UHGV virus genome: UHGV-0208947
Length of the DNA: 43,224 bases
Origin: a virus
Direction: 5' to 3' (one strand)
Shown: piece by piece, positions 4,298 to 18,465 of the stretch
Layout: each line of letters starts with the position of its first letter
Numbering within the stretch: position 1 is the stretch's first letter
Notes under the pieces: model-generated
Database searches by the model: none
What the model was told of the DNA's origin: nothing
Seen by the model: only the letters and a program-made list of their open reading frames with translations
Made by a program: the position numbers and the translations under genes

Positions 4298-7207
4298 TTA
4301 TGCATGAGTACGCAGCGCTTCAAGGCGGCGCAGGTCGAAGTCGTTCAGTTCGTCGGTGTAGTCAGCAGTGATTGGCGCTGGCCATTCACCTGTGTCGAAT
4401 CCGGTTGCGATATTGCGCATCGCTTTGCGGTACTCGAGCATACCCAGCTCCAGTAGTTCAGCGGATGCCTCGATGATGGCGATCCAGTGGTAGTTCTCGT
4501 CTTTGTTGACGAAAATCCAGAAGAACTGATCCAGCGCTGCGGTTTCGCAGTACATAGCCGCGCTCAGGTGATAATCACGTTCAATAATTTCCCGGTGTAG
4601 CCTGGCGCGCAGGCTTTCCTGCTTAACATTCCACATGCTGATGGTTTTCAGGTCAGCACCGATACGCACGCCGTCTAGGTCGATCTCAAGGTCAGGGCGC
4701 ACACGAACTTCCAGTCCCGTCTCCTCGTCAAAGCCAAAGTAGCTCACCTCAACGGCGCGGCTCGGGTGGGTTAGCAGCATGCCTGCGGTCGGGTGCGAGA
4801 GCAGTGCTGACTGAATTGCCTGCGCGGTGGCAAGTTGCTGGTGGGTAACCAGCACTTTCCCTTCCGGGTTGTTGCGCCAAGCATCGAGCAGCTCGTCGGC
4901 GAACACTGCATCTGGTTTGACTGCCTTCACGGCCTGAATCAGATCGGCCTTCGTGCCAGAGACTTTCAGCGGTTGCAGCTTCTGAGCTTCCTGCGCGACC
5001 AGGTCAGGATTGATAATCGCAAGTTGTTCGAGTAGTGCGTCGCGGCTGCCGCTGGTTTTAATCTGCGCTGGCAGGGTGGCGTTGTACTCTTTGATGCACG
5101 CCTTCATTGCTGTTGCTGTCTTCTTCTGATCTGCATCGATACGTTGGAATTCAGCTGGCAGCGCCATATAGTTCTGCGCCGTTTCATCCAGGCTAGCGCC
5201 CAGCGGCACCAGCGCTGGCAGGGTGGCGTTGTATTCATCCAGCAAAGCTTTGATATCGTCTGCGCTCAGTTGCGCTGGCAGGCTGGCGTTGTACTCATCA
5301 ATAAACGCGCGGATCGTTGCCGTGGTGGTAAATGCACCTTCCGGAATTACGGGTTCAACGCTAAATTCTTCATCAAGCTGTTCTGGCTGCAACGCCAGCG
5401 CATGTACCAGGTTTCCCATGTCCAGCACTGAGGAGCGCTCTTTGACGATGGTTTTCTCAACGTGGCGCGCATTGAAGTACATCAGCGAAACGCGCGCATC
5501 TTTTACCTGGGTGGAACTGATGCCGTTGGCAGCGTGGTAAACCTCGTTCGGCAGACCTTCATAGCGCCCAGGCTCGAAGTAATCGGGGTAAAAAACAGCT
5601 TGTTCGTCAGATTGCGCCTCTGGCTCGACGTGTGCCAAAACTGGTTCAGTCTGGTTTACAGAATCGCTATTTTGAGCGACAGATTCCGTATTTTGGTTTA
5701 CATCGGCCTGCTGGCCGGGATGTGACTCTTCACCAGTTTCCAGACTGCTTTCGCCTGACTGCATTTCATTACCAACATTTTTTTCATCACTGACAGTTTC
5801 TTGAACCTGCACATTGCTGGTGGTTTCCGTAGCCTGTTTCGTGCCATGAGTTGCTGAGTTCTGCAGTAAAGCCGTAACATCGAATATTCCGTTGCCGACA
5901 TTTTTAACCAGTTCTTGTTCGGCTTTATGTGGTTGTGCTGTCGCTTCCTCTGCGCGGCGGCGTGCTTCTTCTTCACGTACGCGTTGCAGGTTCTCTTCGT
6001 GAGTGCAGAAGGGTTTGCGTGGAGACTCCTTACTTTCAGGTTGGGGAATTTCCTGTGTTGCGGGCTCAGCTTCATGCAATGGCAATAACTCAACAGCAGC
6101 ATTAAACGCAGCAGTCATGGTCCGGTTAACAAACTCCAGGTGAGCGACAGGAGTTAGATGAATATTTTCCGGCGCGATACGTATCAGGTTAAAAATAGCT
6201 GTGCGGTTAACGCCAAGAACGCCGGGTTGATTGCGCAGAATGCTGCTCCATGATTTCCACGGTTCTTCTTTTTTGGTCACGATTTCTTTAGCGCGACGAA
6301 GAATGCTGCCCGGGATCTCGAAGTGGTTGAAGTCCATAGGCAGAAGGGCACATGCAATCTCTAAATCGAGAGTGTCAAGGGTATGGTATGTATCAGGTCC
6401 ACGGTCAGTGACGTAACCGCCGTTGGCATTGGTTCCGGAATCAGTACGCTGAACACTACTGATGTGATTACCGGCAGCCCATTCACGCGCCAGGATGCCA
6501 CGGTCAATGTAATCAGTAGCCGCCCACATTCTGGTGAAACGGAGTACCAGCGCGAGTTCGTGACGCTTGTCCTGGCTGAACACTTTGCGAATGGCATCGG
6601 TGTAGCGCCACAGGTCTTTGGTGTCGTAACCCTTCACTTCCGGGCAGTTCTCAGCAGCTAACAGCAAGTTCTGGACGTAACTGTTATCAGTGTCCATCTC
6701 CAGCGCGCCGATAGCTTCGTACTCTTCGCGGGTTACGTGGTGGCGCAGTTCGTCGGCGGTGAACTGGGAAAGCAGTTGCTTACGAAACGGCATCTGCACT
6801 ACCGGGTAGAGGGTTGAGTCGTCGTCGTGTTCGTCCAGCGTGATGCCAGCGGTTTCTGGCAGCGTTGACTCAGTAGTTATGTGACTATCAACGGTCTGAG
6901 CCGTTTTCTCGTCAGAGTTTTCAGCTGTGACTTTTGGCAGCCAGGTGCGGTCATCGTTCTGCAGTTCGTAGCGTTCGCACCAGGTGTAATCCACTGCGCC
7001 TTCTTCCGGCAGGTCGTCATATACCGGGAAATCGGTGCGGATTGGTTTGGCATAATCTTTACCGCGGCCAGTTTCTTCAATTCCGGCTTCTTCCAGTGCC
7101 ACATCGAGTTGGAGATTGGCGCGCGCTACACTTTTCGCAGTGAACCAAATCACTGCATCTTTCTTGCCAGACTTCTGACTGGCTTTTATCAGATGGAAAA
7201 ATTCCAT
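4298..7207 (-). CDS. RecE-like exonuclease VIII (recombination exonuclease)
   Basis: Long ORF; start taken at the ATG at 7207-7205 (MEFFHLIK...) preceded by AAGAGGA with 6-nt spacing; the track start at 7312 is GTG. Acidic C-terminal domain and position upstream of the RecT-like gene fit a RecE/RecT pair; contains internal EYNA(S/T)LPA repeats. Confidence 0.6.
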   Translation of the reverse strand: MEFFHLIKASQKSGKKDAVIWFTAKSVARANLQLDVALEEAGIEETGRGKDYAKPIRTDFPVYDDLPEEGAVDYTWCERYELQNDDRTWLPKVTAENSDEKTAQTVDSHITTESTLPETAGITLDEHDDDSTLYPVVQMPFRKQLLSQFTADELRHHVTREEYEAIGALEMDTDNSYVQNLLLAAENCPEVKGYDTKDLWRYTDAIRKVFSQDKRHELALVLRFTRMWAATDYIDRGILAREWAAGNHISSVQRTDSGTNANGGYVTDRGPDTYHTLDTLDLEIACALLPMDFNHFEIPGSILRRAKEIVTKKEEPWKSWSSILRNQPGVLGVNRTAIFNLIRIAPENIHLTPVAHLEFVNRTMTAAFNAAVELLPLHEAEPATQEIPQPESKESPRKPFCTHEENLQRVREEEARRRAEEATAQPHKAEQELVKNVGNGIFDVTALLQNSATHGTKQATETTSNVQVQETVSDEKNVGNEMQSGESSLETGEESHPGQQADVNQNTESVAQNSDSVNQTEPVLAHVEPEAQSDEQAVFYPDYFEPGRYEGLPNEVYHAANGISSTQVKDARVSLMYFNARHVEKTIVKERSSVLDMGNLVHALALQPEQLDEEFSVEPVIPEGAFTTTATIRAFIDEYNASLPAQLSADDIKALLDEYNATLPALVPLGASLDETAQNYMALPAEFQRIDADQKKTATAMKACIKEYNATLPAQIKTSGSRDALLEQLAIINPDLVAQEAQKLQPLKVSGTKADLIQAVKAVKPDAVFADELLDAWRNNPEGKVLVTHQQLATAQAIQSALLSHPTAGMLLTHPSRAVEVSYFGFDEETGLEVRVRPDLEIDLDGVRIGADLKTISMWNVKQESLRARLHREIIERDYHLSAAMYCETAALDQFFWIFVNKDENYHWIAIIEASAELLELGMLEYRKAMRNIATGFDTGEWPAPITADYTDELNDFDLRRLEALRTHA

Positions 7208-15890: not shown

Positions 15891-16673
15891 ATGAACCTTG
15901 AAAACACAGTGAAATACCACTTCGCTAAATCCACACTGATTAGCGATTCTCCGCGCGCTACCGCCTCCGATTCACTGACCGGTACCGACATAATGGCTGC
16001 CATGGGCATGACGCAGGAACGCGCCGCAATGGGTTACAGCGCCTTCCTCGGCAAGATGGGCATAAGCAATAACGACCGGGATCGGGCGATCGGTCTGCTG
16101 GCTGAGTACGCGATGACAAAATGCGACAAGGTTGCCGCACTGCGTAAGCTCGGTGCCGCGGTTAAACCTCAGGTGATGCACCAGTTGGCCACCTTCGCTT
16201 TTGAGGACTATTCCCGCAGCGCTGCCAGCGTGAAGCAGTGCGATTGTTGTGACGGTCAGGGCTTCATTGAGGCTGACGTATTTACCAATAAATTCCGTAA
16301 GCCAGAAGGGAAAATGACCGTGTCCGGGATGGTGAAGGTCAAAGAATCCATCAAAGTGCTATGCAAAAAGTGTAATGGCTCTGGTGTGGTTAGTGCTTCT
16401 TGCAGTGATTGCCATGGGCGCGGCAAGGCAGTGAACCAGGCTCTTACTGAGAAACAGGGCGTTCCTGTTCTGGCTGACTGTAAGCGCTGCGGAGGGCGTG
16501 GGTATGAACGACTTCCGTCGACTGAAGCCTATGCTGCTGTATGCCAGATTACTGACGCCATTAGCCTGGACACCTGGAAAAAGTCTGTTAAGCCATTCTA
16601 CGACCTGCTGATCACGAAATTTGATATCGAAGAGTCCTGGGCCGAAAAACAGCTTAAGCAGATAACGCGGTAA
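15891..16673 (+). CDS. Late-gene antiterminator Q-like protein with CxxCxGxG zinc-finger repeats
   Basis: 260-aa ORF between rusA and the lysis cassette; CDCCDGQG, CKKCNGSG, CSDCHGRG, CKRCGGRG repeats; call is mainly positional. Confidence 0.6.
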   Translation: MNLENTVKYHFAKSTLISDSPRATASDSLTGTDIMAAMGMTQERAAMGYSAFLGKMGISNNDRDRAIGLLAEYAMTKCDKVAALRKLGAAVKPQVMHQLATFAFEDYSRSAASVKQCDCCDGQGFIEADVFTNKFRKPEGKMTVSGMVKVKESIKVLCKKCNGSGVVSASCSDCHGRGKAVNQALTEKQGVPVLADCKRCGGRGYERLPSTEAYAAVCQITDAISLDTWKKSVKPFYDLLITKFDIEESWAEKQLKQITR

Positions 16674-16772
16674 CGCCTATAGCGATAGCCTATGATTTTG
16701 TCTTGGGCTATTTACTTTTCCCGAATCTGTGTTAATTTTGTCCCAACGATGGGTTAATGCCTTCGTTTCAAG

Positions 16773-16799
16773 CCCTGCGGATAACACCGTGGGGTTTTT
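16773..16799 (+). terminator. Candidate tR'-like terminator downstream of Q
   Basis: CCCTGCGG-ATAACA-CCGTGGGG hairpin (two G-U pairs) followed by TTTTT. Confidence 0.4.
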
Positions 16800-16876
16800 G
16801 CGTTTCTGGAGACAGCAATACCAAGGTTCGAGACATTCAGGTAAAATTGATGCATTACAGGATGTGAGGTTGGGGA

Positions 16877-17446
16877 ATGAATAATCTACCCGATGATTAC
16901 TTTTTGGATGCGGACGACGAACTCGTTGCTTTTCTGGAGAAGCAGGGCGAGGATTGTATACGCGAAATTCACCAGTCCAACGCACTAAACAAAGAAAATG
17001 GCCAGAAGTTATTGAGTATACTCATTGCTGGCGTGGGCTCGTCATTTTTGTTATTAACGCAACGTACAGGTTTTGATTACCTCACCGCTGGAATGTCTGT
17101 TTTTTTAGTCTACTGGGCAATGTGTGCGGCTTATCTTGTTCGCTGCGTCCTCGTTGTAAGGTCACGAGCTCTCGTGTCATCGACACCCTATGCGCTTTAC
17201 CATGATGGCTATAAAGGGTTTACTGAAGATGATTACACTGGTTTTGAGTCGAAAGGATTTTCAGGAAAGCGTTCAACATTGAACGTCTTGCGGCGCTACC
17301 GGCTTGCGGATTTAACCAGAATGGCTGAAATGAGTAAAAAAGAGAATGCCAGAATAGGCCGAGAACTAGAAAGGGTAAGGATCGCTACAATCCTCACCCC
17401 TGTTTGTGCACTTGTAATCTCAGTACTTACTTACCTTTTTTTCTGA
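16877..17446 (+). CDS. Membrane protein of unknown function (moron between Q and the lysis genes)
   Basis: ATG at 16877 with GAGG upstream; 189 aa with about three hydrophobic helices; AT-rich relative to neighbours. Confidence 0.55.
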   Translation: MNNLPDDYFLDADDELVAFLEKQGEDCIREIHQSNALNKENGQKLLSILIAGVGSSFLLLTQRTGFDYLTAGMSVFLVYWAMCAAYLVRCVLVVRSRALVSSTPYALYHDGYKGFTEDDYTGFESKGFSGKRSTLNVLRRYRLADLTRMAEMSKKENARIGRELERVRIATILTPVCALVISVLTYLFF

Positions 17447-17576
17447 TGTTTTCAGCAGAATCGGCAACAAAGGTATAACCTGTCCTCAGATTTCTTTCGG
17501 CTGGCTGTGGAGCCGGTTTAGGCTGTGGTGCGGGTTGAGGCTTATTTTCTCCAGATGGTTTGTTTGATTCACTCAT
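17427..17576 (-). CDS. Possible small Pro-rich protein (49 aa), convergent with the membrane-protein gene
   Basis: ATG at 17576-17574 with GGAGAA upstream; MSESNKPSGENKPQPAPQPKPAPQPAERNL...; could be spurious. Confidence 0.25.
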   Translation of the reverse strand: MSESNKPSGENKPQPAPQPKPAPQPAERNLRTGYTFVADSAENIRKKGK

Positions 17577-17810
17577 ATAATTCTCCATGTTTGATAGGGT
17601 TATTTTTGGCGATTTAACGATATCAAATACAGTGATTTGCTGCTAGAGCATGCACTTATCTATAACTCGCCCCGGCACCCGCTGGGGCTTTTTTATTTCC
17701 GGCTCACGGTAATCATCCGCTACGTGCTTTGTTGATAAATCCAACCCGTGAAGCCTGAGCCTATTTCCCCTCATACCTGAGAGGACTCACAGCAATTAAG
17801 AGGGGGCTAA

Positions 17811-18197
17811 ATGTCCGATCCAATTTCCGGTACTGGGCTGGCTGGTGGTGCCCTGACGGGTGCCAGTGTTTATGGACTGCTGACCGGAACTGATTACGGC
17901 GTTGTATTTGGCGCATTTGCAGGGGCTGTATTCTACATAGCAACAGCAGCGGATCTGAGCGCATCGCGCCGACTGGCATATTTTATCGTGTCGTATATTG
18001 CCGGGATCCTTTGCTCTGGGTTGGTTGGCTCCAAGCTGGCAAGCTTGACCGGATACAGTGATAAACCTCTGGATGCCATTGGTGCCGTAATCGTATCTGC
18101 TTTAGCCGTTAAGATCCTGACGTTCCTGAATAATCAGGATATCGGGTCGCTGGTGGCGCTCATAACGCGCCGGGGAGGTTCAGGTGGAGCTAAATGA
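17811..18197 (+). CDS. Putative holin
   Basis: ATG with GAGGGGG upstream; 128 aa, Gly/Ala-rich hydrophobic helices, charged C-terminus; first gene of the lysis cassette. Confidence 0.6.
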   Translation: MSDPISGTGLAGGALTGASVYGLLTGTDYGVVFGAFAGAVFYIATAADLSASRRLAYFIVSYIAGILCSGLVGSKLASLTGYSDKPLDAIGAVIVSALAVKILTFLNNQDIGSLVALITRRGGSGGAK

Positions 18198-18465
18198 CCC
18201 GACAGCAACTATAAACGCGCTGTTATGTGCTTGTGTTGTTATTACTCTGATGTTTTATCGTCGTGGTGATTCGCGGCATCGTCCTTGGGTTTCACGTTTA
18301 GCCTGGCTGATTACTGTTACATACAGTGCTGTTCCGTTGGCCTATCTCTGTGGGATTTATCCCCATTCCTCATGGCCCATTATCGTGGCGAATACTATTT
18401 TTCTTTCCGTGCTGGTGGCCGTCAGAGGCAACGTTGCACGCCTGGTTGATCATCTGAGGCACTAA
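18184..18465 (+). CDS. Second small membrane protein of the lysis cassette (holin-like or lysis accessory)
   Basis: GTG start overlapping the holin stop; 93 aa, two hydrophobic segments; ends at the endolysin start (TAATGA overlap). Confidence 0.45.
   Translation: MELNDPTATINALLCACVVITLMFYRRGDSRHRPWVSRLAWLITVTYSAVPLAYLCGIYPHSSWPIIVANTIFLSVLVAVRGNVARLVDHLRH

Follow-up and report, generated by a model that had tools for sequence, protein, structure and literature searches.

Morons in late operons are a well-known kind of element, and one of them, gp15 of phage HK97, is an inner-membrane protein that acts in superinfection exclusion (PMC3594210). In P22, an antisense transcript in the gene region is integral to the sieB/esc/sas system, and in BTP1 the transcript STnc6030, made in lysogens antisense to the late operon, excludes related phages; P22 sas/sieB and BTP1 STnc6030 are precedents for antisense control of exclusion (PMC7067206). 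Here we describe a pair of convergent genes in the virus genome UHGV-0208947 (43,224 nucleotides (nt), the whole stretch analyzed, referred to below as the window), which occupies the interval between the antiterminator gene Q and a holin gene and encodes a predicted three-helix inner-membrane protein of 189 amino acids (aa) and a Pro/Gln-rich protein of 49 aa. By analogy with HK97 gp15, P22 sieB/esc/sas and BTP1 STnc6030, the pair may consist of a membrane effector of the exclusion or abortive-infection type and its cognate, antisense-encoded antidote, toggled by convergent transcription, a reading that we hold tentatively and with somewhat less than an even chance. We know of no description of an obligate convergent pair with a hairpin embedded in the partner gene, nor of the shared leftward promoter module.

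Like HK97 gp15, the 189-aa protein is encoded by a moron that lies in a late operon, points in the direction of late transcription and is bracketed by a terminator, and in one subclade the cassette occupies the very place of HK97 gene 15, with the tail chaperone gene on one side and the tape-measure gene on the other. The two have no more than this genomic slot in common, as the large protein has no match to PF13974 (YebO / HK97 gp15) in Pfam; gp15 is also a small single-pass protein, whereas the protein described here has 189 residues, three helices and an obligate convergent partner gene. P22 SieB (192 aa) is a membrane-anchored protein of similar size. Distant 158-aa homologues of the large protein are encoded by single rightward genes between a leftward early operon and a cI-like repressor gene, which are the position and orientation of P22 sieB. 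SieB, however, has two N-terminal helices and a soluble C-terminal domain rather than three helices, and the predicted antisense transcript at our locus encodes a conserved peptide. Homology to SieB was considered and rejected: the family profile aligned to P22 SieB with an hhalign probability of 0.4%, and there was no match to PF14163 (Pfam, E<=0.1), which P22 SieB itself matches at 4e-29. Homology to SieA was likewise rejected (hhalign probability 0.2%). P22 sieA, an exclusion gene with its own promoter, resembles the large gene in being an inner-membrane protein gene inserted in the late region, but it points against late transcription while the 189-aa gene points with it.

The predicted small-gene transcript is, like STnc6030, antisense to the late operon. 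STnc6030 is non-coding, exceeds 700 nt and lies opposite tailspike and injection genes, whereas the transcript predicted here is about 245 nt long, coding, and paired with a membrane-protein gene. There is also a resemblance to type I toxin-antitoxin or 'excludon' antisense pairs, in that the mRNA of a membrane protein is predicted to be overlapped by a convergent transcript, a geometry from which mutually antagonistic expression is expected; the promoter, hairpin and overlap of such a cis-antisense RNA are predicted here from sequence and covariation. Type I toxins, however, are hydrophobic and shorter than 60 aa, unlike the 189-aa membrane protein that would be the toxin here; the 49-aa protein has no hydrophobic segment, and the antisense partner encodes a conserved protein.

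The two genes are an obligate, co-inherited pair. A full-length large gene and a small gene were found together in 152 of 154 loci, that is, in 74 of 76 distinct alleles. One of the two unpaired loci is a member of the distant 158-aa clade, and the other (L013, ~4570-4940, from an Enterobacter metagenome-assembled genome) carries the open reading frame (ORF) of an insertion sequence (IS) transposase exactly at the place of the small gene, with the large gene intact, the only such case. Every non-redundant locus has a convergent ORF of 47-56 aa, whose overlap with the 3' end of the large gene measures 19-34 nt, and 20 nt in the window. In the opposite direction, no intact small gene was seen without the large gene, only two truncated remnants. 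Both ORFs are real genes, with matches to PHROG families of unknown function (11870 for residues 1-188 of the 189 of the large protein, E 5.6e-84; 14506 for the small protein, E 5.4e-26), homologues throughout the Enterobacterales and purifying selection. The DNA derives from a lambdoid prophage of E. coli, in a 100%-identical copy of which the annotation pipeline PGAP makes the identical call of the 189-aa gene (WP_001567568.1); PGAP also annotates the 49-aa protein (WP_162842358.1).

An earlier note on this DNA, made from the sequence of the window, had pointed out the convergent Pro-rich ORF with a good ribosome-binding site, and both features hold (49 codons, 8 prolines, GGAG 6 nt 5' of the ATG). 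What it had missed is that the ORF is not incidental: the small gene is an obligate partner with its own predicted promoter and a covarying hairpin. Its product begins with MS(E/Q)xNKP, continues with a Pro/Gln-rich low-complexity stretch and ends in the conserved motif (D/R)(F/N)xxxRxxVGDSA(E/D)..RKKxK, which in the window reads RTGYTFVADSAENIRKK. The frame is open in 34 of 34 variants, while the other frames average 1-4 stops. The ratio of nonsynonymous to synonymous substitution rates (dN/dS) is 0.43 for the coding frame, whereas four of the five other frames give ~0.9-1.65; the value of 0.52 in the directly opposite frame is expected because codon positions are shared. A 53-aa extension of the ORF to 17588 is not conserved. 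AlphaFold2 gave no fold (predicted template modeling score 0.15) and one helical turn, and the 52 database relatives are all enterobacterial hypothetical proteins of 43-93 aa. The product of the small gene is a real, fast-evolving, disordered peptide.

Beyond the stop codon of the small gene lies a hairpin that is embedded in the large gene, within the codons of a transmembrane helix. It consists of 13 base pairs followed by CUUUCUAGUUCU and is present in all 33 variants. In a gap-free alignment 94% of the cells are paired, and 5 pairs show compensatory changes (46 cells); not one of 500 shuffles reached the observed paired fraction or covariation score, and sliding the partners by 1-3 columns as a control left 45-57% of the cells paired. 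About one sixth of the cells are G·U, which is A·C on the other strand, and in the window the minus strand folds at -20.1 kcal/mol (z -3.5), the plus strand at -11.6 (z -1.4). At two coupled codons the residue combinations V/T, A/A and A/T were seen but V/A never, and V/A is the one combination that would break the minus-strand pair. The covariation, the energies of the two strands and the missing V/A argue that the hairpin is selected in the leftward RNA. Its most likely role is to terminate or stabilize the predicted small-gene transcript of ~245 nt; the U-tract is imperfect, so that we speak of a putative terminator.

The large gene has 189 codons, with GAGG 7 nt 5' of its ATG and a median dN/dS of ~0.11. 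About three hydrophobic helices and a charged cytoplasmic N-terminus had been expected in its product, in line with the hydrophobic segments at residues 44-62, 69-94 and 167-189. The 43 N-terminal residues are acidic (11 D/E against 3 K/R) and residues 93-166 are K/R-rich (15 K/R), features that are kept throughout the family and from which an N-in, C-out topology is predicted. The N-terminus and the basic middle region would thus lie in the cytoplasm, the first two transmembrane helices would form a hairpin with a short loop in the periplasm, and the C-terminal segment would serve as an anchor. In the AlphaFold2 model (alignment of 42 sequences; predicted local distance difference test score 83), long helices at 14-62 and 134-188 extend from the cytoplasm into the membrane, and the second transmembrane helix spans 68-92. 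The first is rich in Gly and Ser, with G52 invariant and G54, S55 and S56 nearly so; further invariant positions are P104..L107, R140, N157, R168 and P175. Homologues of 189 aa occur in Escherichia, Salmonella, Klebsiella, Citrobacter, Yersinia, Serratia, Proteus, Morganella, Pantoea and others, all of them named 'hypothetical'. An exhaustive HMMER search gave 103 representatives of the family, and an exhaustive profile search extended it, in other Proteobacteria and further afield, to distant proteins of 158-200 aa that keep the architecture and have no known domain. A Pfam scan of 65 members and 10 longer ones found no shared domain and no informative fusion; P0181 proved to be a repeat artefact. 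The protein had been described as having no recognizable motif, and the family, profile and structure searches, including a Foldseek comparison with viral structures (nothing at E<0.1), bore this out. Neither protein family has a characterized member, and a literature search by accession and PHROG number found no paper on either protein.

In most loci the cassette lies between a Q gene and a holin gene. The Q genes before it fall into at least three unrelated groups (PF03589 and PF06530 among them) and the holins after it into at least five, also unrelated, so that it is independent of Q and holin family. The location bears on the possibility that the membrane protein modulates the triggering of the holin, as an antiholin or a factor in lysis timing, which would explain why it precedes the holin. 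The large gene does lie directly 5' of the holin gene in most loci and is predicted to be co-transcribed with the lysis genes. We nevertheless consider a lysis accessory quite improbable: the earlier note had named homology to an antiholin or other lysis component as the finding that would speak against its proposal, and such homology was sought and not found in any holin or antiholin family of Pfam; the adjoining holins belong to at least five unrelated families, with the cassette tied to none; distant homologues adjoin the repressor gene instead; close phage relatives lack the cassette; and the tail-slot subclade lies far from the lysis genes. That subclade keeps the pair, the overlap and the hairpin but differs upstream of the small gene, and in one of its loci the cassette stands beside a YebO-family gene. 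The large gene is co-oriented with late transcription in both slots. The cassette is rare, being detectable in 13 of 5426 complete E. coli genomes and 5 of ~50,700 phage records.

The definition of a moron by Hendrix and Juhala has been summarized (PMC3594210), and the pair agrees with it in several respects. It is extra DNA between genes that are adjacent in related phages: identity to HK225, mEp237 and E. coli KL53 stops after CTGGAG (16811) and restarts at a T-tract (17689). The end of Q, the block of late promoter pR' and terminator tR' up to 16811, the T-tract of the second terminator and ~70 nt before the holin are common to the window and these three genomes, in which the same flanks enclose a reverse gene of 137 aa, a forward gene of 214 aa or no gene. 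Equal flanks around differing cargo, or none, identify the segment 16812-17688 as exchangeable, and the proposal of a moron in the slot between Q and the lysis genes stands. The segment had also been called AT-rich. Its G+C content is indeed lower than that of its surroundings, at 44-46% (windows 16550-17749), the Q gene having 51-59% and the holin region 50-54%, although the difference is modest. Terminators of its own are predicted, on the plus strand by the signal that closes the cassette, where the stem differs from one cargo variant to the next and the T-tract is common to all, and on the minus strand by the covarying hairpin; a generic promoter scan detected no promoter for either gene. 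The pair is a self-contained, horizontally mobile two-gene moron.

These hallmarks would also suit a function in lysogenic conversion unrelated to phages, such as tolerance of envelope stress, colicins or antibiotics, or host colonization, with the small gene tuning the level of the membrane protein. Many late-operon morons, lom and bor for example, serve the host (PMC3594210). For the pair described here such a function appears unlikely, as nothing indicates a particular host process and the family is confined to prophage or mobile-element contexts in every locus inspected.

What drives the small gene? The extended -10 element upstream of it has the form TGnTAnnnT, which a scan placed at a fixed distance from the small-gene ATG in 27 of 30 variants of the Q-holin slot, its middle base varying; two further variants carry it by eye, their start codon having been mis-called by the script. 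The leader is ~34 nt long, A-rich and unstructured (-1.3 kcal/mol), and promoter and leader equal the best coding parts in nucleotide conservation. Pairing of the leader in trans with the 5' end of the large mRNA was rejected (energies equal to those of shuffled controls, z ~0, no conserved site). The core of this region, GATATYGTTAAATCGCCARAARTAAC, with an ATG and its Shine-Dalgarno sequence ~22 nt further on, was found in 106 viral contigs (loci L111-L215). About 46 of them had no full-length match to the large gene in the stretch examined, ~10 of these stretches ending too near the element to judge. There the element, at the same spacing, precedes many unrelated ORFs antisense to late transcription, whose products include a zinc-ribbon protein of 67 aa, a protein of 92 aa, a DUF2441-like protein of 179 aa and several of 150-170 aa. 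A late-direction terminator or a tRNA cluster, in reverse complement, invariably lies 5' of the element. The Q-to-S region of lambda that was examined does not contain the element. Promoter and leader therefore form a portable module for leftward expression, placed at the right-hand end of the slot.

Other cargo of the slot is also convergent with a late-direction gene, overlapping it or nearly so (L216/L217, 2550-3044; L115, L120, L139, L165, L177). In one example a reverse gene of 92 aa meets a forward gene of 76-87 aa (overlap of 4-15 nt); in another the reverse gene is DUF2441-like (177-180 aa) and its forward partner encodes 71-74 aa. These pairs had no meaningful match in Pfam or PADLOC.

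Two side observations concern the surroundings of the module. In most loci there is a hairpin 5' of the small-gene promoter (17637-17650, weak in the window), with a conserved 3' arm, yTGGCGGC, and a 5' arm that varies so as to pair with it in different registers (GCCAGA/TCTGGC, TGCCGC/GCGGCA); it occupies the minus-strand -35 region, which is the 3' untranslated region of the plus-strand transcript. In related loci (L119, 2111-2340; L137; L147; L161), 2-4 late-direction tRNA genes (Met, Arg, Thr, Phe, Gly) replace the plus-strand terminator beside the module. Clusters of tRNA genes are found likewise in the late regions of Shiga-toxin phages. The window has no tRNA gene.

The same promoter and leader preceding so many unrelated ORFs could mean that the two genes are unrelated neighbors, the small ORF being just one cargo of the portable promoter, or, as a variant, that antisense RNA alone matters and the peptide is irrelevant. 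We regard this as very unlikely. The genes co-occur in the 152 loci given above, including the subclade without that promoter module; the covarying hairpin 3' of the small ORF forms part of the large gene; and the small frame is always open, with frame-specific dN/dS and a conserved C-terminal motif.

The 140 nt 3' of Q align with the pR' region of lambda. The -35 element is TTTACT (16711-16716) and the extended -10 is TGT-TAATTT (16730-16738, with TGn at 16730-16732 and TAATTT at 16733-16738). The CAACGATGGGTTAAT block of lambda contains the start site and a sigma-dependent pause element, and we take AACGAT (16745-16750) to be the pause element and probable start, by its role in lambda. The promoter is kept along with this Q allele in HK225, mEp237 and KL53. 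The tR'-like hairpin noticed earlier is there (-16.8 kcal/mol, z -3.1), aligns together with its T-tract with lambda tR', and corresponds to a site annotated as a terminator in HK225. The unit from pR' to tR' (16745-16807) is ~138 nt shorter than the 6S RNA region of lambda, so that the constitutive, terminated pR' transcript would be only ~60 nt long. A candidate -10 hexamer, TAAAAT or TAAGAT, stands 34-41 nt 5' of the large-gene ATG in 23 of 33 non-redundant cassettes, those of the tail-slot subclade among them. The other 10 have no such hexamer at that position, and in five of them the large gene starts no more than ~35 nt after a terminator-like hairpin, from which we infer that late read-through is probably the main source of large-gene transcription.

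From this geometry, late transcription by Q-modified polymerase necessarily yields sense RNA of the large gene and antisense RNA of the small one, and because the plus-strand terminator lies beyond the small gene, any mRNA of the large gene holds the full complement of the small mRNA. In a repressed lambdoid prophage, pR' transcripts end at tR'. The leftward promoter would then be unopposed and the small gene on, and such large-gene mRNA as arose in the lysogen, from a weak TAAAAT promoter or by read-through of tR', would be countered both by colliding polymerases and by an RNA complementary to it throughout; the membrane protein itself may also be bound and neutralized by the disordered 49-aa peptide. 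After induction, antiterminated, Q-modified polymerase would cross the cassette and read through its closing terminator, silencing the small gene and allowing the membrane protein to accumulate. On this reading the membrane protein would be an effector that does harm unless restrained, with the small gene as its antidote and regulator. The earlier note had proposed a candidate factor for superinfection exclusion, abortive infection or host interaction. If so, a new family of membrane effectors would join prophage-encoded exclusion, with a simple design principle for silencing such effectors in lysogens.

Several observations weigh against the reading of an effector and its antidote. No meaningful match for either protein was found in Pfam, NCBIfam or PADLOC, and the defense models of PADLOC-DB 2.0 gave 0 families at E<=1 for both. 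A profile search of the PDB with the large protein returned only weak GpsB coiled-coil noise (E 0.025), and fold searches returned only generic long-helix bundles. The large gene stays intact in the locus where an IS element has replaced its partner, and so has no obvious lethality by itself, and the distant 158-aa homologues have no conserved convergent small ORF beside them. The leftward module also drives unrelated cargo, and its conservation is therefore no evidence for a function of this particular pair. Finally, the orientation of the genes would also fit a reverse assignment of roles, in which the leftward small gene, through its peptide, its antisense RNA or both, would be a defense expressed in lysogeny, and the late membrane protein a self-immunity factor that neutralizes it and thereby lets the prophage go through its own lytic cycle. 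Known exclusion functions that are expressed in lysogeny from within late operons do oppose late transcription, as in P22 sieA and BTP1 STnc6030 (PMC7067206), and prophage defenses with lytic-cycle counter-defenses have been described in Tai (PMC11364771) and Tha (PMC11087260). The 10 variants lacking a -10-like hexamer at the conserved position before the large gene also agree with such roles. We still think the reversal improbable, because distant homologues of the large protein stand alone in immunity regions, which implies a function independent of the small gene, the small protein is fast-evolving and disordered, and remnants are all that was found of a small gene without its partner.

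The interval between Q and the holin hosts Shiga toxin and other late cargo, which makes further cargo found there of practical and evolutionary interest. The present analysis defines a widespread but rare gene pair of the Enterobacterales without annotated function and with an unusual architecture, the hairpin 3' of one gene being encoded within a transmembrane helix of its partner, in a slot served by a portable leftward module that drives many unknown genes, several of them in similar convergent pairs. A more far-reaching idea, to which we give a low probability, is that the pair represents the first-described member of a new kind of prophage switch module, in which a new family of membrane effectors, pore-forming or injection-blocking, would be restrained by a convergently encoded disordered peptide and its antisense mRNA and freed only by late transcription. 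The common leftward promoter and leader would then be a general device for expressing lysogeny-phase cargo, which would also reduce the read-through that reaches the lysis genes and, the sequence being common to many lambdoid phages, provide an antisense RNA that targets late mRNA when related phages enter.

Positions of the features in the window, with the strand and the basis of each assignment.
Feature	Positions	Strand	Basis
Antiterminator Q gene (left neighbor)	15891-16673	+	Pfam PF03589 Antiterm, E 2e-45; PHROG 127
Late promoter pR'	16711-16750	+	Alignment with lambda pR', CAACGATGGGTTAAT block identical
Intrinsic terminator tR' (hairpin 16770-16797 and T-tract)	16770-16807	+	Terminator scan, folding, lambda alignment
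Variable cargo segment (moron) between conserved flanks	16812-17688		Alignments with HK225, mEp237 and E. coli KL53; G+C content
TAAAAT, candidate -10 of the large gene	16842-16847	+	Consensus match only; no convincing -35
Gene of the 189-aa three-helix inner-membrane protein	16877-17446	+	PHROG 11870; hydrophobicity; AlphaFold2; dN/dS 0.11
Conserved hairpin ~27 nt 3' of the small-gene stop, in large-gene codons 164-176 (RVRIATILTP)	17372-17400	-	Covariation, folding
Gene of the 49-aa disordered Pro/Gln-rich protein	17427-17576	-	PHROG 14506; conserved ORF; dN/dS
Promoter and leader of the small gene	17577-17625	-	Extended -10 TGaTATCGT 17625-17617; predicted start ~17610; Shine-Dalgarno GGAG 17586-17583
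Intrinsic terminator closing the cassette	17669-17697	+	Terminator scan; -17.5 kcal/mol, z -3.8
First holin gene (right neighbor)	17811-18197	+	Pfam PF16931, E 1e-34

The stretch 16600-17850 of the window is 100% identical to the chromosome of E. coli LR-33, for which NCBI gives the gene order antitermination protein, hypothetical protein of 189 aa (+), hypothetical protein of 49 aa (-) and two holin-family proteins. A scan of 16600-17900 against Rfam gave no match close to family thresholds. The two holin-family genes of the window stand in tandem (17811-18465) and encode proteins of 128 aa (PF16931) and 93 aa (PF05449); they overlap by 14 nt, the second starting at 18184, and a GH19 endolysin gene follows. 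Between the terminator of the cassette and the holin lies a block of ~70 nt (17698-17768, GGCTCACGGtAATCATCCGCTACGTGCTTTGTTGATAAATCCAaCCCGTGAAGCCTGAGCC), without an Rfam match, that is near-identical in HK225, mEp237 and KL53, although the holins of these three belong to another family than that of the window.

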